Source: Acidimicrobiia bacterium (lineage in GTDB: Bacteria > Actinomycetota > Acidimicrobiia > Acidimicrobiales > Bin134). Taken from it: a DNA stretch of 64,000 nt. The translations under genes and the position numbers were made by a program. How positions within the stretch are numbered: the stretch's first letter is position 1; the number at the start of each line of letters is the position of its first letter. The stretch is from assembly GCA_022825005.1 (NCBI GenBank), contig JAJDYU010000046.1, forward strand, positions 18,140 to 82,139. The letters are read 5' to 3'. Shown here piece after piece: positions 6,183 to 60,455 of this stretch. Under the pieces are notes generated by a model. It had not been told where the DNA came from. It ran no database searches and was given only the letters and a program-made list of their open reading frames with translations.

Positions 6183-6290
6183 TTGCCTAACGTTCACGCC
6201 GTTAATCGGAGCCCGAGGCCATGACAGGCGCGTGGTTCCTGCTTCAGATTGCCCAGCATTCACGCCGTGACCGGCGCGCGGAGCCATGAC
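6183..6290 (+). repeat. imperfect direct repeat (about 43 bp, about 77% identity, period 65-66) duplicating the mshA start region
   Basis: Copy A 6183-6225 (ttgcctaacgttcacgccgttaatcggagcccgaggccatgac). Copy B 6249-6290 (ttgcccagcattcacgccgtgaccggcgcgcggagccatgac). Both end in gccATGAC. Confidence 0.8.
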
Positions 6291-7500
6291 TCAAAACGTG
6301 GCCGTGTTGTCGCTGCACACGTCGCCGTTAGCGCAGCCGGGCGTGGGCGACAGCGGGGGCATGAACGTCTACGTGCGGGAGATGGCCGCGGCGCTAGCTC
6401 ACCGCGGCAGTGAATGCCGGGTGTACGTGCGCCGGTCCCAAGGTGGCCTGCCCGATGAAGTGGCCATCGAGCCCGGCGTGACCGTGGTCCACATCGACGC
6501 CGGTCCCGTCGATCTGCACAAGGAGGATCTCTTCGGGACAGTGGACCAATTTGCCGACGGCGTGTTGGCTGACTTCCAGCGAACCGGACTGCCCGATGTG
6601 ATTCACGCCAACTATTGGCTGTCGGGTATCGCTGGCCACCGGGTCAAGCATGCGGTGGGGGTGCCGATGGCGGTGACCTTCCACACGCTGGCCCGGGTTA
6701 AGGCAGCCACCGGCGACCCCGAGTCGGAGCAGCGGGCCCAAGCCGAGTCCGAGGTGATTGGTTGCGCCGATGTGGTGATCGCCTCTTGCGAGCCGGAGGC
6801 CCAGCAGTTACGGAGCTTCTACGATGCCCCGCCGGAGCGGATAGAGCTGGCCCCTCCGGGGGTGGAGCATGCGCTGTTCTCTCCCGGCGACCGGGAAGGT
6901 GCTCGGGCCGCGCTGGGCATGGGCCCTGGTCCAATTCTGCTGTTCGTGGGCCGAATCCAGCCGCTGAAGCGGCCCCTGGTGGCGGTGGAGACTTTGGCTC
7001 TCCTAGAGCGCCAGGACGCTCGCCTGTTGGTGGTCGGCGGCCCCAGCGGCACCGAAGGGGAAATTGAGTACCGGCGCTTGCAAGACCGCATTCAGGCCCT
7101 GGGATTGGCCGATCGGGTGGCGCTGATCCCACCCCGCCCCCACCACTGGCTGTCCACGTACTACCGGGCCGCCGATGTAGTGGTGGTTCCCAGCCGAAGC
7201 GAGTCCTTCGGTTTGGTGGCCCTTGAAGCGGCAGCCAGTGGGACTCCGGTGGTGGCTGCTCCGGTAGGTGGGCTGCGCTCGGTGGTGGTTCACGGCCGCA
7301 CCGGGTTCCTGGTGGACGATGCCACTCCGGAGGCATTTGCCGCCCGGGTGGCCGCACTGATCGACAACCCTCTGCTGGCCGTAGAGATGGCCATGGATGC
7401 GGCCGAGCGGGCGCGGTTGTTCTCGTGGACGGCCATGGCCCGATCGCTTCGAGCCACCTATCGCCGGGTCCAGTCTCGAGTGCTCGTCGATTGCAAATGA
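6286..7500 (+). CDS. mshA: D-inositol-3-phosphate glycosyltransferase (mycothiol biosynthesis)
   Basis: 404 aa GT4. N-terminus VAVLSLHTSPLAQPGVGDSGGMNVYV is the MshA signature. ESFGLVALEAAASGTPVV (E-x7-E). Followed by a YbjN-like gene, as I recall for mycobacteria. Confidence 0.88.
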   Translation: MTQNVAVLSLHTSPLAQPGVGDSGGMNVYVREMAAALAHRGSECRVYVRRSQGGLPDEVAIEPGVTVVHIDAGPVDLHKEDLFGTVDQFADGVLADFQRTGLPDVIHANYWLSGIAGHRVKHAVGVPMAVTFHTLARVKAATGDPESEQRAQAESEVIGCADVVIASCEPEAQQLRSFYDAPPERIELAPPGVEHALFSPGDREGARAALGMGPGPILLFVGRIQPLKRPLVAVETLALLERQDARLLVVGGPSGTEGEIEYRRLQDRIQALGLADRVALIPPRPHHWLSTYYRAADVVVVPSRSESFGLVALEAAASGTPVVAAPVGGLRSVVVHGRTGFLVDDATPEAFAARVAALIDNPLLAVEMAMDAAERARLFSWTAMARSLRATYRRVQSRVLVDCK

Positions 7501-7528
7501 CGTCGCCGATGGCCTATAACCCTGTCGA

Positions 7529-7990
7529 TTGCCCATGATTCTGCGGGCCGAAGAGTTGGCCGCATTGGAATCGGACATCGACGCCTGGTTGGACGATCAG
7601 CTTCAGACCAACCCGACCGTGTTGACCGTGGACCGGGGCGAGCCTGGACAGCGCCGCTGGTACGTGCGGATGGTGGGGGAGGAGAAGACGGTGTCCACCG
7701 TCTGGTTCACGCTCGGCCAACGACAACTGCACTGCGAATGCCATTTCATGCCCGCACCCGAGGAGAACGAGGCCCAGCTCTACGAATACCTGCTGCGGCG
7801 CAACCGAGAGCTGGCCGGGCTGCGCTTCGCCATCGGGGTGGAAGACGCCGTGTTCTTGGTGGCCGAGCTGGCCGCCCACACAGTTACCGAAGCGGAGATC
7901 GACCGGCTCCTGGGCTCGTTTTACGCGTATTCGGAGCGGTGGTTTCGCCCCTGCATGAGAATCGGGTACGCCACCCGGTTCAAAAATTAG
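7529..7990 (+). CDS. YbjN-domain protein (putative sensory-transduction/chaperone-like)
   Basis: 153 aa. Position directly after mshA and overall sequence character fit the YbjN family. Assigned by recollection only, no strict motif. Confidence 0.6.
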   Translation: MPMILRAEELAALESDIDAWLDDQLQTNPTVLTVDRGEPGQRRWYVRMVGEEKTVSTVWFTLGQRQLHCECHFMPAPEENEAQLYEYLLRRNRELAGLRFAIGVEDAVFLVAELAAHTVTEAEIDRLLGSFYAYSERWFRPCMRIGYATRFKN

Positions 7991-12167: not shown

Positions 12168-13028
12168 ATGCTGCGCGCCGCCACCCGAGGCAGCGCCTTG
12201 GCCCGCTGGCAGACCGCCCACATTGCTGAACTGTTGGGCCGCGCCGCCGATGTCCAACCGGTTTTGGTAACCACCACCGGCGACCAGTTGGCCGACGAGC
12301 CCATCTCGGCCATCGGCGGCAAAGGGGTATTCGTCAAAGAAGTGCAGGCCGCGGTGCTCGACGGCCGGGCCGACATCGCCGTCCACTCGGCCAAGGACCT
12401 GCCGGCGGCCACTCCCGACGGGCTGGTGATCGCCGCCGTGCCTCACCGGGCCGATCCCCGAGATGCGCTGGTGGGTTGCCGCTTGTCCGATCTTCCCGAA
12501 GGCGGGTTGGTGGCCACCGGCGCAGCCCGTCGCCGGATCCAGCTTCGGGAGATGCGCCCCAATCTGCGGTTCGCCGAACTGCGGGGCAACATCGGCACTC
12601 GGCTGGCCAAAGCGGCCGATTACGACGCCATAGTCATGGCCCAGGCCGCATTGGATCGCTTGGGCGAGCGTCCTCCGGTGGTCGAAGTACTGGGCTGCGA
12701 CCTCATGGTGCCCCAAGTGGGCCAAGGCGCCCTGGCGGTGGAGTGCCGAGCCGATGATGGCCGGGTGCGCGAATTGCTAGGCGCCATCGAAGACCCCACC
12801 GCCCGCTGGGCGGTCGACGCCGAGCGGGCCTTTCTGTCCACCCTGGGCGGCGACTGCACGCTGCCTGCCGGCGCCCACGCCCACGTCGAGGGTTCCACGC
12901 TGGCCATGCGGGCAGTGCTGGCCGACGGCCTCGACGGCCGGTGCCACACCGTGGCGGGTGAAGGAGAAGACGGGGAGGCTCTGGGACGGCGCTTGGCCCG
13001 CCAGTTGCTAGAGGCGGTGGCCTCATGA
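12168..13028 (+). CDS. hemC: hydroxymethylbilane synthase (porphobilinogen deaminase)
   Basis: LRAATRGSALARWQT, GGKGVFVKE, DIAVHSAKDLP, RGNIGTRL, ERAFLSTLGGDCTLP. Confidence 0.92.
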   Translation: MLRAATRGSALARWQTAHIAELLGRAADVQPVLVTTTGDQLADEPISAIGGKGVFVKEVQAAVLDGRADIAVHSAKDLPAATPDGLVIAAVPHRADPRDALVGCRLSDLPEGGLVATGAARRRIQLREMRPNLRFAELRGNIGTRLAKAADYDAIVMAQAALDRLGERPPVVEVLGCDLMVPQVGQGALAVECRADDGRVRELLGAIEDPTARWAVDAERAFLSTLGGDCTLPAGAHAHVEGSTLAMRAVLADGLDGRCHTVAGEGEDGEALGRRLARQLLEAVAS

Positions 13029-13070
13029 CCGTCTACTTGAAGCCGGCTTGGGTGGCCTCATGACCGTCTA
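13016..13070 (+). repeat. 20-bp perfect direct repeat (ggtggcctcatgaccgtcta), period 35, duplicating the hemC-stop/cobA-start ATGA junction
   Basis: Copies at 13016-13035 and 13051-13070, read directly from the sequence. Confidence 0.9.
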
Positions 13071-26952: not shown

Positions 26953-27573
26953 ATGGCCCGCCTCAACGCCAACAACCTCACGGTTGCCCAGGAGATCTTG
27001 AGCCGGTATCCGGTTCCCCGCTCCGCTCTCATCCCCCTGCTGCACTTGGCCCAAGAACAAGACGGCTACGTCGCCGAGGACGCCATGGCCCACATCGCCG
27101 AACTGGTGGGTGTGACCCCCGCCGAGGTGATGGGCACGTGCAGCTTCTACGAGATGCTCAAGCGGGAGCCGGTGGGCCAATACATGGTCAACATCTGCAA
27201 CGGCATCTCCTGTCATCTGCTGGGCTCGTCCGATCTGATCCATCACGCTGAGGCCACCCTGGGGGTGAGGCCCGGCGGAACCACCGACGACGGCAAGATC
27301 ACCCTGGAAGCGGTGGAGTGCATCGCCGCCTGCACCGAGGCTCCTTGCCTCCAGGTCAACTACCGCTACCGCAACCAAGTCACCGCCGACGACTTCGACC
27401 AGCTGGTTGACGACTTGCGGGCTGGAACCGCCGGAGTGGCCCCCCACGGCCAGTTGGCCAAGGTGCGCCAGCACATCGGCGACGACCGCCGGGCCGGAGT
27501 GTCGCCCCCCGACGGCCAGGGCGAGCCCGCCTGGATGGCCCGCAATCCCTCCGACAACGGGGACGGCTCATGA
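26953..27573 (+). CDS. nuoE: NADH-quinone oxidoreductase subunit E
   Basis: SALIPLLHLAQEQDGY, NICNGISCHLLG, ECIAACTEAP ([2Fe-2S] cysteines). Internal ATG of track ORF 25627..27573. Confidence 0.9.
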   Translation: MARLNANNLTVAQEILSRYPVPRSALIPLLHLAQEQDGYVAEDAMAHIAELVGVTPAEVMGTCSFYEMLKREPVGQYMVNICNGISCHLLGSSDLIHHAEATLGVRPGGTTDDGKITLEAVECIAACTEAPCLQVNYRYRNQVTADDFDQLVDDLRAGTAGVAPHGQLAKVRQHIGDDRRAGVSPPDGQGEPAWMARNPSDNGDGS

Positions 27574-28898
27574 CCGCGCCTGCTCCCCAAGACCTGCGCA
27601 TCATCACCTCCCGCTTCGGCATCGAAGACGGCCACACCCTGGCCGGCTATGAACGCACCGGGGGCTATGCCGGGCTGAGGCGGGCGCTGGAGATGGCCCC
27701 CGCCGACGTCCACGGCGAGGTTCGCACCGCCAGCCTTTTGGGCCGGGGCGGCGCCGGGTTCCCCGCCGGGGTCAAGTGGGGGTTCTGCCCGCCCGGCGTG
27801 TGGCCCCGCTATTTGGTGGTCAACGGCGACGAGTCCGAGCCCGGCACCTACAAAGACCGACTCCTCATGGAGCGCGACCCCCATCAGCTCATCGAGGGCT
27901 GTTTGATCGCCTGCTACGCCCTCGGGCTCTCCCAGTGCTTCTTGTATGTGCGCGGCGAGATGGCCCACGCCCAAGAGCGGTTGGCCGCCGCCCTCAACGA
28001 GGCCTACGAGGCGGGCTACGTGGGCGCCAACGTGTTGGGCGCCGAGGACTTCTCGGTGGACATAACCCTGCACTGGGGGGCCGGGGCCTACATCGTGGGG
28101 GAGGAGACCGCCCTCATCGAGAGCCTGGAGGGCGACCGGGGTATGCCCCGGCTCAAGCCTCCTTATTTCCCGGCGTCTATCGGCCTCTACGGCAAACCCA
28201 CCATCGTCAACAACGTGGAAACCCTGGCCAACCTGCCGTGGATCGTGTCCAACGGCGGGGAGGCGTTTGCCGCTATGGGCGCCGACAGCTCCACCGGCAC
28301 CCGGGTGTTCGCGGTGTCGGGCCATGTGGCCAACCCGGGGGTGTTCGAGGTTCCCTTCGGCACCACCACCTTCCGCGACATCATCTTCGATCCCCTCTAC
28401 GCCGGCGGCATGCGCCCCGGCCGCACCCTCAAGACGTTCATCCCCGGCGGCGCGTCAGCGCCCTGGTTCTTTGAGGAACACCTCGACCTCCCCCTGGAGA
28501 AGACCACCGTCGATCAGGCCGGGTCGATGCTGGGCTCGGGGGCCATCGTGGTCATGGACGACACCACCGACGTGGTGAAGGCCTGCCACAACGTGGTGCG
28601 GTTCTTCGCCCGGGAGTCTTGCGGCAAGTGCACGCCGTGCCGGGAGGGCACATCCTGGCTGGAGAAAATCCTCAGCCGCATCCTGGCCGGCCAAGGCCGT
28701 CCCCAGGACCTGGACCTGCTCATGGATGTGTGCGACAACATCAGCCCCGGCATCGCCTGGCCACCCCGCCAGACCACCATCTGCCCGCTGGGACCTTCTG
28801 CCGTATCGCCCATCGCCTCGGCTTTGGAGCGGTTCCGCGGCGAGTTCGAGGCCTATCTGCCCGCCACCGCGGTGACTGTTGCGGGGGTGGCGTCGTGA
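27570..28898 (+). CDS. nuoF: NADH-quinone oxidoreductase subunit F
   Basis: GRGGAGFPAGVKW (FMN), NGDESEPGTYKDR, ESCGKCTPCREG (N3 cluster). Confidence 0.94.
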   Translation: MTAPAPQDLRIITSRFGIEDGHTLAGYERTGGYAGLRRALEMAPADVHGEVRTASLLGRGGAGFPAGVKWGFCPPGVWPRYLVVNGDESEPGTYKDRLLMERDPHQLIEGCLIACYALGLSQCFLYVRGEMAHAQERLAAALNEAYEAGYVGANVLGAEDFSVDITLHWGAGAYIVGEETALIESLEGDRGMPRLKPPYFPASIGLYGKPTIVNNVETLANLPWIVSNGGEAFAAMGADSSTGTRVFAVSGHVANPGVFEVPFGTTTFRDIIFDPLYAGGMRPGRTLKTFIPGGASAPWFFEEHLDLPLEKTTVDQAGSMLGSGAIVVMDDTTDVVKACHNVVRFFARESCGKCTPCREGTSWLEKILSRILAGQGRPQDLDLLMDVCDNISPGIAWPPRQTTICPLGPSAVSPIASALERFRGEFEAYLPATAVTVAGVAS

Positions 28899-31438
28899 GC
28901 GAGAACGAGACCGTGGTCAACATCACCGTCAACGGTAAGCCGGTGCAGGCTGAACCTGGCGAGTGGGTCATTGCCGCCGCCGAGCGGGCCGGGGTGTACA
29001 TCCCCCACTTCTGCTACCACCCCCGCATGAATTCGGTGGGCATGTGCCGCATGTGCATCGTGGACATCGACACCGGGCGAGGCCCCGCCTTGCAACCCTC
29101 CTGCATGGTGGCGGTGAGCGAGGGCATGGTGGTGGACACCACCTCCGAGCAAACCCGCAAGGCCCAAGACGGGGTGTTGGAGTTCTTGCTGCTGAACCAC
29201 CCGCTGGACTGCCCGGTGTGCGACAAGGGCGGCGAGTGCCCCCTCCAAGACCAGACCATGGCCTACGGCCCCGGCGAGAGCCGGTTCGTGGAGGAGAAGC
29301 GCCACTTCGAAAAGCCCATCCCGGTGAACGACTTTGTGTACCTCGACCGGGAGCGCTGCATCCTGTGCGACCGTTGCACCCGTTTCGCCGACGAGGTGGC
29401 CGGCGACCCGCTGATCACATTCCAAGACCGGGGCGACCAGACCCAGGTGAACACCTTCCCCGAACTGCCTTTCTCCTCCTACTTCAGCGGCAACACCGTG
29501 CAGATCTGCCCGGTGGGCGCGCTCACCGCGGTGCCCTATCGGTTCAAGGCCCGCCCTTGGGACCTCACCGAGGTGGAGTCCACCTACCCCAACCCGATGG
29601 GCGACCGGGTGGTGGTGCAGGCCTCGCGTGATCAGGTGCTGCGCTATCAGGGGGTGGACAGCGACGCGGTCAACTGGGGGTGGCTCACCGACAAGGACCG
29701 ATTCTCGTTCGAGGCCACCGCCAGCGAGCTGCGGCTTCAGACCCCGCTTATTCGAGGCACGCCTTTGGGCCGGCCCGACCCCGGCGGCAGCGAGCTGGTG
29801 GAAACCACCTGGCGCCAAGCCCTCACCCAAGCAGCCGATGCCATCAAGGCGGCGGTGGCCGACAAGGGTCCCCAATCGGTGGCGGTTCTGGGGGGCGCCC
29901 GGCTCACCAACGAGGACCAGTACACATGGGCCCGGCTGGCCAAGGCAGTGATCGGCACCGACAACGTCGACGCCCAGCTCGACGACGGCCTTCCCGCCGA
30001 TGCGGTGCTCGGCCTGCCCCGGGCCACCATCAACCGGGCCTGCACCCCCGGCGGCACCGTGATACTGCTGGCCCCCGATCCCAAAGAGGAGCAGGGCACG
30101 CTGTACCTGCGCCTGCGCCACGCCGTGGTCAACGACGGGGTGCAGCTCATCGAGATCACCCCCCGGGCCACCGGGCTCAGCCATCTGGCGGCCCACGGGC
30201 TGCACCACCGCCCCGGAGAGGCCGCCGCGGTGGCCGCGGCGCTGGTGGGCGGCGACATCGATTCTGGACCCGACGGAGACATCGGCGGTGTCCCCTCCGC
30301 AGACGTGGCGGCCGCGGCGGCGGCACTGGCCGACCGCGCCGACCAGCCGATCACCGTGATCCTGGGCCGCCCCTCGCTGGCCGAGTCGGCCGACTTCACC
30401 TTGGACGCGGTGGCTGAGCTGGCCCGGTTCGCCAACCTTCTAAACGCCGGCGGGCGGCCGGGCATCGCGTTCTTGCCCGCACTGCACCGGGGCAACGTGC
30501 TGGGCGCGCTCGACATGGGACTGGCCCCGGGCCTGCTGCCCGGTCGGACCACCCTGGCCGACGGCGGACGGTCACTGGCCGAATCGTGGGGCTCGGTGCC
30601 CTCTGCCCCGGGCGCGGGTACCCGCGACATCCTGAAAGCCGCCGCCGAAGGCCGCATCGACGTGCTGATCCTGCTGGGGGCCGATCCGCTGGGCGACTTC
30701 CCCAATTCCGAGCAGGCCGAAGAGGCCCTCAGCCAGGTGGGCACGATCATCGCCTCGGATCTGTTCCTCAACCCCTCTGCGGGCCGGGCCCACGTCGTGT
30801 TCCCCGCGGCCGGGTTTGCCGAGCGCCGGGGCACCCACACCAACCTGGAAGGGCGGGTAACCGTCCAGCGTCAGATCATCACCCCGCCGGGCACCGCCCG
30901 GGCTGACTGGGCCATCGCCACCGAACTGGCCCGACAGCTAGGCGCTGACTTCGGTCTCGGCTCTCCCGAGGAGGTGTGGGAAGAGATCGCCGCGGTGGCC
31001 CCGTCGCACCGGGGCCTGTCCATCGAGGCCATCGACGCTTCCGACGACGGCGTGGTGGTGGCCGACAGCTCCATCGCCTTCACCCCGCCCGAATCCTCCG
31101 CCTCGGCCCCGCCGACCGACGCCTACTCCCTGCGGCTGGTGTCGGCCCGGAGGATGTACGACCGGGGCACCCTGGTCCAGCACACCGGTTCGCTGGCCGG
31201 CTTGGCCCCGGCCGCCGTTCTGTCGGTCAATCCCTACGACTTCTCGCGGGTCGGCGTAGAGACGGGCACCGATGTGAAGGTGATCTCCAACGTGGGCGAG
31301 ATGGACATGCCGGTGGTGGCCGACCCCGGTGTGCCCCGGGGAACCGCGGCGTTCGGCTACAACCACCCCGACCTGGATGTGCGTGATCTGGTAGATCCCA
31401 ACGCGGCGGTCACCGACCTGAGGATCCAAACCCGATGA
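28895..31438 (+). CDS. nuoG: NADH-quinone oxidoreductase subunit G
   Basis: GTG overlaps the nuoF stop (GTGA). IPHFCYHPRMNSVGMCRMCIV, HPLDCPVCDKGGECPLQD, CILCDRCTRF, then a molybdopterin-oxidoreductase-like domain. Confidence 0.92.
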   Translation: MSENETVVNITVNGKPVQAEPGEWVIAAAERAGVYIPHFCYHPRMNSVGMCRMCIVDIDTGRGPALQPSCMVAVSEGMVVDTTSEQTRKAQDGVLEFLLLNHPLDCPVCDKGGECPLQDQTMAYGPGESRFVEEKRHFEKPIPVNDFVYLDRERCILCDRCTRFADEVAGDPLITFQDRGDQTQVNTFPELPFSSYFSGNTVQICPVGALTAVPYRFKARPWDLTEVESTYPNPMGDRVVVQASRDQVLRYQGVDSDAVNWGWLTDKDRFSFEATASELRLQTPLIRGTPLGRPDPGGSELVETTWRQALTQAADAIKAAVADKGPQSVAVLGGARLTNEDQYTWARLAKAVIGTDNVDAQLDDGLPADAVLGLPRATINRACTPGGTVILLAPDPKEEQGTLYLRLRHAVVNDGVQLIEITPRATGLSHLAAHGLHHRPGEAAAVAAALVGGDIDSGPDGDIGGVPSADVAAAAAALADRADQPITVILGRPSLAESADFTLDAVAELARFANLLNAGGRPGIAFLPALHRGNVLGALDMGLAPGLLPGRTTLADGGRSLAESWGSVPSAPGAGTRDILKAAAEGRIDVLILLGADPLGDFPNSEQAEEALSQVGTIIASDLFLNPSAGRAHVVFPAAGFAERRGTHTNLEGRVTVQRQIITPPGTARADWAIATELARQLGADFGLGSPEEVWEEIAAVAPSHRGLSIEAIDASDDGVVVADSSIAFTPPESSASAPPTDAYSLRLVSARRMYDRGTLVQHTGSLAGLAPAAVLSVNPYDFSRVGVETGTDVKVISNVGEMDMPVVADPGVPRGTAAFGYNHPDLDVRDLVDPNAAVTDLRIQTR

Positions 31439-31480
31439 CCGCGGGTTTGTCGAACCAAGGGGTCAAAACCCGATGACCGC
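31428..31480 (+). repeat. 15-bp perfect direct repeat (aaacccgatgaccgc), period 38, duplicating the nuoG-stop/nuoH-start ATGA junction
   Basis: Copies at 31428-31442 and 31466-31480, read directly. Confidence 0.9.
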
Positions 31481-32690
31481 CGCTCTCGGTCCCACCGTGT
31501 TTGGCATCGACCCCCTGTATGTGGGCGGGGCGGGCCTGGCCGAAGTGCTCATCACCCTGCTCAAGGTGGGAGTGGCCTTCGCGGTGCTGTTGGTGGCCGT
31601 CATGTTGATGATCTGGTTCGAGCGCAAGCTCATTAGCGACATGCAGAACCGCATCGGCCCCAACCTGGCCGGCCCGTTCGGCATCTTCCAAACGCTGGCC
31701 GACGGCATCAAGCTGTTCTTCAAAGAAGACCTCATCCCCGAGCAGTCCGACCGCTTGGTCTTCAAGCTGGCCCCCTACCTGTCGCTGGTGCCTGCCTTCT
31801 TGGTGTTCGCCGTGGTCCCGGTGGGGGGAGACTTCAGCGGCGGCAACGGCCGGGTCTCCTTATTCGGACACGAGACCTTCCTCCAGGTGTCCGACCCACC
31901 GGTGGGCATCCTGCTGGTGCTGGCCATGTCGTCGGTGGCGGTATACGGGGTCATGCTGGCCGGGTGGTCGTCGGGCTCCAAGTATCCGCTGCTGGCGTCG
32001 GTGCGGGCCTCGGCCCAGATGGTTTCGTATGAGGCCGCCCTGGGGCTGTCGCTGGCCGCAGTGCTGTTGAAGTCGGGCAGCTTGTCCACCAACCAGATCG
32101 TGGCCGAGCAGTCGGTGTGGAACTGGAACCTGTGGGTTACCTGGGTGGTGCCCATGGTGATCTTCTTGATCGCGGCCACCGCCGAGCTCAACCGGCCCCC
32201 GTTCGATTTGGTGGAGGCCGAGCAGGAGCTGGTCGGGGGCTTCCACACCGAGTACAGCTCCATCCGGTTCGCCTTGTTCTTCCTGGCCGAGTTCATGAAC
32301 ACCATCACCATGTCGGCCATCATCGTCACGCTGTTCTTGGGCGGTCCCAACGGCCCCGACTTCACCACGGTGGGCTGGCTGTCGGGCCTGCTGTGGTTCT
32401 TCATCAAGCTGATGCTGTTCCTGTTTGCCTTCGTGTGGCTGCGGGCCACCCTGCCCCGCTTCCGCTACGACCAGCTCATGGATTTGGGCTGGAAGCTGCT
32501 CATCCCCCTGTCGCTGGGCTGGCTGCTGGTGCTGGCCTCTTATGACGTGGCCGGCGACCGGGGTTGGAACCGAGCCGCCGCGGTGATCGTGATGCTGGCC
32601 ATCATGGCCGCACTGGCCGGGCTCTTGGCCCTGGCCCTGCGGGCCGCCCGCCAACGCCGGGAGCTCGACCCCCAAGGAGGATTCGCGTGA
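31473..32690 (+). CDS. nuoH: NADH-quinone oxidoreductase subunit H
   Basis: ERKLISDMQNRIGPN, DGIKLFFKED, AELNRPPFDLVEAEQELVGGFHTEYS. Confidence 0.93.
   Translation: MTAALGPTVFGIDPLYVGGAGLAEVLITLLKVGVAFAVLLVAVMLMIWFERKLISDMQNRIGPNLAGPFGIFQTLADGIKLFFKEDLIPEQSDRLVFKLAPYLSLVPAFLVFAVVPVGGDFSGGNGRVSLFGHETFLQVSDPPVGILLVLAMSSVAVYGVMLAGWSSGSKYPLLASVRASAQMVSYEAALGLSLAAVLLKSGSLSTNQIVAEQSVWNWNLWVTWVVPMVIFLIAATAELNRPPFDLVEAEQELVGGFHTEYSSIRFALFFLAEFMNTITMSAIIVTLFLGGPNGPDFTTVGWLSGLLWFFIKLMLFLFAFVWLRATLPRFRYDQLMDLGWKLLIPLSLGWLLVLASYDVAGDRGWNRAAAVIVMLAIMAALAGLLALALRAARQRRELDPQGGFA

Positions 32691-59612: not shown

Positions 59613-59626
<14 letters not shown>
59054..59626 (-). CDS. second thiamine-phosphate-synthase-family protein (ThiE/TenI-like paralog)
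   Basis: VLVLTD...AVIFRGKD...ADGVHLAG...GRSCHG...GVDYVTLSPVFETESKPG...VYALGGI...GAAGVAV. In-frame candidate starts are GTG 59569, 59626 or 59692. Confidence 0.65.

Positions 59627-60455
<829 letters not shown>

Follow-up and report, generated by a model that had tools for sequence, protein, structure and literature searches.

Likely retention for translational coupling of a locus-specific duplicated stop/start overlap at the nuoG/nuoH junction in Acidimicrobiia

The window analyzed here is a stretch of 64,000 nt from an Acidimicrobiia bacterium, in which nuoG and nuoH lie within a run of co-oriented nuo genes. Between the two sits a mini-ORF, hereafter the relay, whose start overlaps the nuoG stop and whose stop overlaps the nuoH start. 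The features of this junction are as follows.

28619..31438, + strand: nuoG ORF (NuoG match), in longest-ORF coordinates
31420..31424, + strand: Shine-Dalgarno-like GAGGA in the nuoG 3' end, 10 nt upstream of the relay ATG (putative function)
31428..31442, + strand: junction copy 1, AAACCCGATGACCGC, with the nuoG stop TGA (31436-31438) and the relay start ATG (31435-31437)
31428..31448, + strand: short hairpin aaacccg/cgggttt with a 7-nt loop, spanning the nuoG stop and the relay start
31435..31476, + strand: relay mini-ORF of 13 codons plus stop, reading MTAGLSNQGVKTR, with a 4-nt ATGA overlap at each end
31457..31462, + strand: Shine-Dalgarno-like AAGGGG within the relay, 10 nt upstream of the nuoH ATG
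31466..31480, + strand: junction copy 2, again AAACCCGATGACCGC, with the relay stop TGA (31474-31476) and the nuoH start ATG (31473-31475)
31473..32690, + strand: nuoH, 405 aa (NuoH match)

The relay codons are atg acc gcg ggt ttg tcg aac caa ggg gtc aaa acc cga tga, and both ends carry the 4-nt stop/start overlap (ATGA) of termination-reinitiation coupled gene pairs. Read directly, the nuoH frame holds no start codon other than ATG 31473 between the stop at 31419 and that position. The real nuoG start is probably near 28.9 kb, downstream of the longest-ORF start, given that the NuoG profiles match from residue 95-102 onward and that the 442-aa ORF before it closes at 28898. The first-pass annotation had described a perfect 15-bp duplication at a spacing of 38 enclosing a 13-codon ORF with ATGA at both ends, and each of these elements is present at the junction. 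The repeat can be extended to 21 nt at 90% identity (31422-31442 vs. 31460-31480).

We also considered an RNA element of the leader-peptide attenuator or riboswitch type. Part of the hairpin is retained in two other genomes (G009 and G002) and it is missing in a third (G017), and a long-range pairing is predicted between GGCGGUCA (31405-31412) and UGACCGCC (31474-31481). Folding of 31405-31500 gave no significant gain in stability over shuffled sequences (z = -1.65), a scan of 31000-31900 found no terminator-like and no promoter-like site, and no Rfam family matched near the junction. On these grounds the RNA element was rejected.

The junction was then compared across 41 genomes of the genus, which comprises sponge-associated Acidimicrobiia of the 'Ca. 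Poriferisocius' group. nuoG and nuoH meet directly, with no unit between them, in 24 of the 41; a single 38-nt relay is found in 11, four have a relay of another length (14, 50 or 62 nt), and one (G034, the nearest relative) has two 38-nt units that differ from each other by 1 nt, with the proviso that most of these genomes are metagenome-assembled and unit counts may have collapsed in some. Genomes assembled as a single contig carry zero units (G001) or one (G015, G017, G041), and the closest genomes, G034 and G035, differ in unit number. The stop/start chain is intact in every genome with a complete junction; in G012 the available sequence stops inside nuoH. Within the 38-nt period of the source genome, 15 of 38 nt are identical, and the 38-nt unit recurs with another interior in distant congeners, which leads us to reject a fresh tandem duplication in the source genome. 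Rather, the 38-nt unit is old, variable in copy number and common to many species.

The relay diverges faster than its surroundings, with a mean pairwise identity within the genus of 0.62, compared with 0.83 over the 60 nt that flank it, and yet its length of 38 nt is constant. In most relays of the genus the only interior feature retained is a G-run 10 nt upstream of the nuoH ATG; the ATGA ends are retained as well. These observations bear on whether the 13-residue peptide might itself be functional, for example as a small accessory or regulatory peptide of complex I. The ORF is indeed intact in 12 genomes. However, the peptides differ among genomes (MTAGLSNQGVKTR in the source, MTAGRPLQGVQV, MMVYLLLQGGQNR, MSAGVRGRWGES and MTMLPRLSGISNR elsewhere), interior identity is 0.56, and most congeners lack the ORF altogether, so that a functional peptide is in our view scarcely credible.

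On a local tree of 37 genomes, the presence of the relay requires 11 changes, at least eight of them forced by well-supported branches, and is spread over the tree about as haphazardly as shuffled labels would be. A single origin followed by one loss is thereby ruled out. The relay may have arisen long ago and been precisely deleted several times, or it may have moved by recombination between species; the two may also have acted together.

The nuoG/nuoH junction is not the only site of its kind in the window, and the first-pass annotation had counted it as the third. Both of the other instances, at hemC/cobA-hemD (d = 35) and in a leader ORF ahead of an mshA-like gene (ATGs 6221 and 6286, d = 65), were recovered. 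A further relay follows the mshA-like gene.

7497..7537, + strand: relay after the mshA-like gene, d = 38; the mshA-like stop (7498-7500) overlaps ATG 7497
13016..13070, + strand: hemC/cobA-hemD junction repeat of 20 nt, d = 35, between hemC (12168..13028) and cobA-hemD (start 13060)
13025..13063, + strand: hemC/cobA-hemD relay ORF, reading MTVYLKPAWVAS and then a stop

The relay at 7497..7537 is again a 13-codon ORF, its TGA overlapping ATG 7535 of the next ORF, and all that remains of its repeat is 8 nt on the left-hand side. At hemC/cobA-hemD, units of 35 nt occur across the genus in zero, one or two copies (two in the single-contig G038), and none of the 29 genomes has a break in the stop/start chain. 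A spacing of 2 mod 3 holds for 17 of 17 relay intervals at nuoG/nuoH and for 20 of 20 at hemC/cobA-hemD, though these are not independent events and represent about 9-10 distinct forms. In both surveys the downstream start always overlaps the relay stop, by either 4 nt or 1 nt.

The same frame preference extends over the whole genome, as the first-pass annotation had anticipated; the two checks that it proposed, on genome-wide spacing classes and on the junctions of relatives, were both carried out and both favored it. We defined a duplicated NTGA junction as an exact repeat of at least 11 nt with the same NTGA motif in both copies, the first copy ending and the second opening a long coding ORF. 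Of 13 such junctions, 12 are spaced 2 mod 3, one 0 mod 3 and none 1 mod 3 (P ~2e-5 for 12 of 13; binomial, our own arithmetic). Considering all NTGA-to-NTGA gene pairs, class 2 outnumbers class 1 by 119:43 in the source genome (G000; p = 1.9e-9), by 27:11 in G001 and by 26:9 in G029; the excess is found in a congener and in another family as well. The genes behind these genome-wide counts were called by our own crude codon-score caller. Spacing of 2 mod 3 is not the single permissive class that the first-pass annotation had supposed. In-frame outcomes also survive, by extending the N-terminus: examples are the repeat at the thiG end with d = 66 and the NuoH N-termini that are 3 residues longer in four genomes (G010, G049, G031 and G039).

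Could such repeats arise by chance or through faulty assembly? The source genome is a 92-contig assembly, and nothing else speaks for this explanation. After subtraction of a constant 11 ascribed to unmasked N runs, three triplet-shuffled genomes contained no exact repeats of at least 15 nt whose spacing was at most 150 and not divisible by 3, whereas the real genome holds 19 and 29 in the two non-zero spacing classes. The structure is found, moreover, in many independent assemblies, those in a single contig among them. We therefore attach next to no weight to chance or artifact, in keeping with the first-pass view that the recurrence is not coincidental.

Another possible source is a mobile intercistronic element akin to the MIRUs of the Mycobacterium tuberculosis complex, inserted at the start codon so that the 15-nt repeat would be a target-site duplication. 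By published accounts, a MIRU inserts at a start codon, which it overlaps at -4, and is bordered by tetranucleotide direct repeats (Supply et al., 1997, summarized in PMC12548453 and PMC3184786). The patchy distribution of the relay among close relatives would suit such an insertion, as would the weak similarity between spacer and flanks in the source genome (11 of 23 positions, by hand count). Against it, an all-against-all comparison of relay interiors from 67 loci gave 44 weak matches where shuffled interiors gave 36, the only genuine match being one pair of paralogous loci; interiors are thus unrelated between loci. Several relays were plainly copied from the adjacent nuoG 3' end: those of G015 and G041 are near-copies of it (4 mismatches in 38 for G015), and G043 uses a separate 50-nt copy. 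The repeated junction also ranges from 11 to 29 nt across loci, unlike a fixed target duplication. With interiors unrelated between loci, a mobile-element origin is largely refuted, and we judge it very improbable here.

Our reading of the anatomy, phyletic pattern, frame rule and genome-wide excess observed here is that the nuoG/nuoH stop/start overlap was likely duplicated as a locus-specific, minisatellite-like unit and retained for translational coupling. An ancestral ATGA junction, the form that 24 of the 41 genomes still have, would have been duplicated in tandem with a 38-nt period. As 38 equals 3n+2, the duplicated start would open a frame running into the duplicated stop, and the added DNA would therefore read as a 13-codon ORF with one ATGA overlap per neighbor. 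A ribosome finishing nuoG would reinitiate at the overlapping AUG, translate the filler ORF, terminate on the nuoH AUG and reinitiate there. An untranslated spacer of ~20 nt nearly abolishes termination-reinitiation coupling (PMC10666635), and the relay would hold nuoH coupled to nuoG over a gap otherwise too long for this process. The peptide itself would not be the relevant product. Unit number could shift by slippage or unequal recombination between junction copies, consistent with the zero, one or two units of close relatives, and the same processes may homogenize the junction copies as the spacer, being single-copy, drifts. To persist, a duplication or a later indel would need to keep 2 mod 3 spacing or to fuse in frame to the downstream N-terminus. 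We infer that ribosomes translate the relay and that selection acts on coupling.

Two points speak against this reading. nuoH retains a Shine-Dalgarno-like motif of its own, and independent initiation is possible. The 2 mod 3 rule, for its part, would be equally expected if 3n+2 were simply the least harmful result of copying a live start site.

The relay might alternatively be a tolerated scar that adds nothing to the expression of nuoH, which would initiate from its own Shine-Dalgarno site; a copied start would then be harmful when reading out of frame into nuoH and harmless when stopping at the nuoH start. Nearly all relays preserve the Shine-Dalgarno-like G-run, most genomes of the genus lack the relay, and its phylogenetic scatter is what a near-neutral length polymorphism would produce. 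Yet the chain is unbroken at two junctions (in 41 and 29 genomes), the downstream start overlaps the relay stop rather than merely following any stop, and every direct junction at nuoG/nuoH and at hemC/cobA-hemD is an overlap, a sign that coupling is important at both sites. A tolerated scar and coupling predict an identical sequence pattern, and sequence data alone therefore cannot tell them apart; we consider the scar unlikely, with a small but real chance of being correct. The first-pass proposal that a duplication is kept only when coupling survives is supported by the frame rule and the unbroken chain, with the corrections that in-frame N-terminal extensions also survive, that the 38-nt unit is old and that MIRUs are a published counterpart of the architecture.

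In many respects the relay is comparable to the MIRUs as portrayed in published accounts. In both, short intra-operon units are oriented with the genes, a small ORF overlaps the flanking stop and start codons at -4, and tandem repetition varies in copy number between close relatives; the benefit proposed for both is that downstream expression is spared through translational coupling (PMC12548453; PMC3184786). The same accounts present MIRUs as a dispersed family of ~40-50 related copies, thought to be mobile (PMC12548453; PMC3184786). The Acidimicrobiia units, in contrast, are locus-specific, each derived from its own junction with an unrelated interior; they measure 35-38 nt rather than the ~40-100 bp of MIRUs, form no dispersed family at tens of loci, and reside in an Acidimicrobiia lineage instead of Mycobacterium. 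MIRU units measure 77, 53 and 62 bp, and these lengths too are all 2 mod 3.

Both ends of the relay likewise show the canonical -4 overlap of ATGA/TGATG termination-reinitiation (Huber et al., 2019, PMC6728339; 2023, PMC10666635). Genes for the subunits of heteromeric complexes, the class to which nuoG and nuoH belong, are enriched in short overlaps (PMC10666635). Known cases, however, join two real genes directly, whereas here a filler cistron is interposed and two successive reinitiation events would be needed. Mycobacterial uORFs also overlap the main start codon by 4 nt at their end and serve by being translated rather than through their peptide, as we predict for the relay; they differ in lying in 5' leaders and relying on de novo initiation, whereas the relay would be fed by the upstream stop and born of junction copying (PMC12548453; bioRxiv 10.1101/2022.06.01.494293). 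Full-text literature searches returned MIRUs and uORF coupling, and no paper on junction duplications that are locus-specific and follow a 3n+2 rule.

A bolder extension, which we rate as doubtful, is that relay units act as a heritable, reversible dial and that frame-filtered junction duplication is a general route to MIRU-like coding minisatellites. If so, each reinitiation step would pass on a fraction of ribosomes and unit count would tune the ratio of downstream to upstream subunits; the route would span the Acidimicrobiia and probably other high-GC lineages, and could be the origin of MIRU families. Unit counts of zero, one or two occur between near-identical genomes.

More immediately, the comparative evidence suggests that selection maintains an unbroken stop/start chain at operon junctions, where an insertion of 14 to 104 nt survives only if it reads as a cistron that exactly fills the space between the two genes. 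Local sequence can repeatedly give rise to MIRU-like architecture, and no mobile repeat family is required. The 3.3-Mb genome holds ~75-100 candidate unannotated mini-ORFs, some part of them due to chance, and candidates of the relay type would escape annotation pipelines. The natural series of zero, one and two units provides material for gauging the efficiency of ribosome transfer at successive reinitiation sites.

The genome under study (G000) is a 3.33 Mb assembly in 92 contigs with 65% G+C, in which the window spans C81:18140-82139. Among named genomes, those closest to it are sponge-associated MAGs of the Acidimicrobiales ('Candidatus Poriferisocius', Sva0996 group). At the junction of its complex I genes nuoG and nuoH, AAACCCGATGACCGC is read directly from the sequence twice, at 31428-31442 and 31466-31480, with a spacing of 38 nt; a repeat search lengthens the match to 21 nt (90% identity). 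Between the two genes lies a relay, by which we mean a filler mini-ORF joined to its neighbors by a stop/start overlap at both ends. The junction is composed as follows.

Features of the nuoG/nuoH junction
31420-31424: SD-like purine run GAGGA, 10 nt before the relay ATG
31438, plus strand: end of the nuoG ORF, identified by NuoG profile matches
31435, plus strand: ATG of the relay ORF MTAGLSNQGVKTR, overlapping the nuoG TGA (31436-31438)
31457-31462: SD-like purine run AAGGGG, 10 nt before the nuoH ATG
31473-32690, plus strand: nuoH (NuoH match), its ATG overlapped by the relay TGA (31474-31476)

From the stop at 31419 to 31473, the nuoH frame contains no start codon besides 31473. No terminator, promoter or Rfam family was found at the junction, and the stability of the predicted local structure there is not significant. 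At the other end of nuoG (28619-28900 region), the longest ORF opens 94 codons ahead of the NuoG profile start and overlaps the preceding 442-aa ORF (27570-28898); the true start is probably near 28.9 kb. The duplicated junction and relay ORF described in the first-pass annotation are thus confirmed by the sequence, and chance is excluded by triplet-shuffled genomes. Exact repeats of at least 15 nt with a spacing of up to 150 nt number 19 and 29 in the two non-zero mod 3 classes of the real genome; shuffled genomes hold zero such repeats at spacings not divisible by 3, after subtraction of a constant 11 attributed to unmasked runs of N. Since repeats of this kind are absent from shuffled genomes, the observation is real.

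Across the genus, 41 genomes were examined at this junction, and a script traced the succession of overlapping stop and start codons.

Relay state at the nuoG/nuoH junction in the genus
No relay, direct 4-nt or 1-nt overlap: 24 genomes (in G012 the sequence breaks off within nuoH)
One 38-nt relay: 11 genomes
Two 38-nt relays, differing by one base: 1 genome (G034, the closest relative)
14-nt relay: 2 genomes (G005 and G033)
50-nt relay: 1 genome (G043)
62-nt relay: 1 genome (G039)

Every one of the 17 relay intervals is 2 mod 3. Wherever the junction is complete, stop and start overlap, so that the comparison of relatives proposed in the first pass comes out with every complete chain intact. 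The 38-nt relays of G015 and G041 plainly reproduce the final 29 nt of nuoG followed by the initial 9 nt of nuoH (4 mismatches in 38 between relay and source in G015), and G043 clearly carries a separate 50-nt duplicate of the nuoG end. Because these relays copy adjacent sequence, we conclude that they arose when the local junction was tandemly duplicated. NuoH is extended by three N-terminal residues at loci L012 (G010), L151 (G049), L153 (G031) and L157 (G039), for example MIVGVPLPGPTVFGL. The extra codons in G010 resemble the 5' part of a sister genome's relay, which suggests from sequence resemblance that a relay was absorbed in frame into nuoH, as if via a 29-nt deletion.

The distribution of relays across the genus is patchy. 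A maximum-likelihood tree built for 37 genomes from the flanking 3 kb calls for 11 changes in relay presence, of which well-supported branches impose at least 8; with the labels shuffled, the mean is 12.2. The sister genomes G001/G017 and G016/G002 are discordant. The 38-nt relays of distant clades have derived features in common, namely a CCAGGGGG(T/G)T run and a Q-G-V/G peptide segment, and are therefore homologous. The simplest history is that of an old 38-nt unit repeatedly lost by precise deletion between the junction copies, supplemented by sporadic expansion (G034), fresh duplications and perhaps interspecies recombination.

Nine relay carriers were compared. Their mean pairwise identity is 0.62 in the relay and 0.56 in its interior, compared with 0.83 in the 60 nt on either side; relay length is constant, and conservation is confined to the ATGA ends and a G-run lying 10 nt ahead of the nuoH ATG. 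What is constrained is therefore the reading frame, the length and the signals for initiation rather than the peptide. A fresh tandem duplication in G000 would be repeated in full; only 15 of the 38 nt are, with 11 of the other 23 agreeing with the upstream unit when counted by hand, and this origin was rejected. The comparison with relatives settles the matter: the spacer is an old single-copy interior of a minisatellite of the form (junction+spacer)n+junction, with n = 1 in G000, whose junction copies plausibly stay alike through exchange during expansion and contraction. The junction repeat is 11 nt in the two nearest genomes vs. 15 nt in G000, because nuoH begins ATGAGCGCT there. At nuoH codons 2-5 (31473-31490), G000 differs from those two genomes (L141/L142) at 3 clustered positions of 11, the genomes being some 1-2% diverged elsewhere; the cluster may represent a short conversion or recombination tract.

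A second junction, between hemC (12168-13028) and cobA-hemD (start 13060; both NCBIfam), carries a 20-nt perfect repeat at a spacing of 35 nt and a 12-codon relay between the genes. Compared in 29 genomes, it contains no unit in 13, one 35-nt unit in nine, two in four, and relays of 44, 68 and 104 nt in one genome each. G034, one of the 13, has the same first 200 CobA-HemD residues as G000. The 20 intervals are without exception 2 mod 3, and the stop/start chain is intact in each of the 29 genomes. The 104-nt case (L124, G006) is a single 35-codon relay, its total still 2 mod 3, which by its sequence looks like three 35-nt units minus the internal stop/start overlaps and one base.

Genome-wide, exact repeats of at least 11 nt with a spacing of up to 150 nt were sought in which the copy-1 stop ends a coding ORF of at least 70 codons and the copy-2 start opens one. 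Of 17 matches, 13 repeat the same NTGA motif, with 12 at 2 mod 3, one at 0 mod 3 and none at 1 mod 3 (P ~2e-5 for at least 12 of 13 at one-third each, by our own arithmetic; a triple copy spaced 35+35 was entered once). The filter is independent of spacing class and hence not biased, and the enrichment anticipated in the first pass is borne out. Two other matches, with ancestral overlaps of 13 and 11 nt, likewise give relays ending on the downstream start. A repeat-independent count required one NTGA ending a gene, another starting the next within 120 nt, a short first-opened ORF and a best-scoring downstream frame. It gave class 2 (3n+2) to class 1 ratios of 119:43 in G000 (p=1.9e-9), 27:11 in the congener G001 and 26:9 in G029, a genome from another family of the order (800 kb each). 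In G000, some 74-98 open relays overlap a neighbor at each end; their lengths peak at 35-41 nt, and part of them will be due to chance, as GTG and TTG starts were allowed. The 3n+2 rule is clean and general-looking.

Several related arrangements were noted. At 7497-7537, the TGA (7498-7500) of an mshA-like glycosyltransferase overlaps ATG 7497 of the 13-codon ORF MTSPMAYNPVDCP, whose TGA overlaps ATG 7535 of the next ORF (spacing 38); merely an 8-nt left-hand repeat, tcgattgc, is retained, and the site looks like an older relay of the nuoG/nuoH kind. An imperfect repeat at 6183-6290, with gccATGAC at its end, sets ATG 6221 65 nt ahead of the mshA-like start (6286), opening a 22-codon ORF that ends in ATGA on that start; since no co-oriented upstream gene feeds it, it counts as a leader ORF rather than a relay. 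On the minus strand at 59613-59693, the 15-nt thiG-end repeat CGTGCCGAGTTCTGA has a spacing of 66 with the GTG of both copies in frame and no stop between, so that the downstream gene may carry a 22-residue N-terminal extension; it is an in-frame way of preserving the overlap. Outside the window, three copies of CGGGCATGATCCGAC (35 + 35 nt) lie between two long ORFs on the minus strand of contig C68 (~8160), and their recognisably related spacers mark a two-relay array inside G000. At C81:123436, also outside the window, an 18-nt repeat is the whole mini-ORF ATGAACAGGTTCAACTGA (spacing 40), copy 1 being the upstream gene end and copy 2 ending in TGATG on the downstream start; fed by no overlapping start, it represents a different, non-relay solution.

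Experiments in E. coli and Haloferax have demonstrated that an untranslated spacer of ~20 nt almost abolishes termination-reinitiation coupling, and short overlaps are enriched among subunits of heteromeric complexes (PMC10666635). A 38-nt insertion would therefore uncouple the complex I genes unless translated from stop to start, which 3n+2 spacing alone would achieve for an ATGA or TGATG overlap. With 3n spacing, the copy-1 start would be in frame with that of copy 2 and give an N-terminal extension, an outcome seen in the thiG-end repeat and the extended N-termini of NuoH; under 3n+1, the added ORF would run out of frame into the downstream gene. It is conceivable, though we think it rather improbable, that 3n+2 simply does the least damage when a live start site is copied. 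Both readings predict one and the same sequence pattern. We consider it likely that coupling is needed and that the frame rule follows from this need. The initial proposal that duplications are kept only where coupling survives is supported overall by the spacing-class excess and the unbroken chains, except that in-frame extensions (0 mod 3) also survive.

The closest published analogue is the MIRUs of the M. tuberculosis complex, intercistronic units with ORFs that overlap their neighbors at both ends with -4 spacing; they form tandem arrays of varying copy number and are believed to integrate at start codons without much disturbing expression (PMC12548453; PMC3184786). The units of G000 and its relatives share this architecture and copy-number variation. 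In contrast to MIRUs, they lack the defining feature of a dispersed family of related repeats, each unit being derived from its own locus. By analogy, they would work like MIRUs without being MIRUs, with relay translation presumed. No description of locus-specific junction duplication with a 3n+2 filter was found in the literature searched, and it is the local derivation of the units that is new relative to MIRUs.
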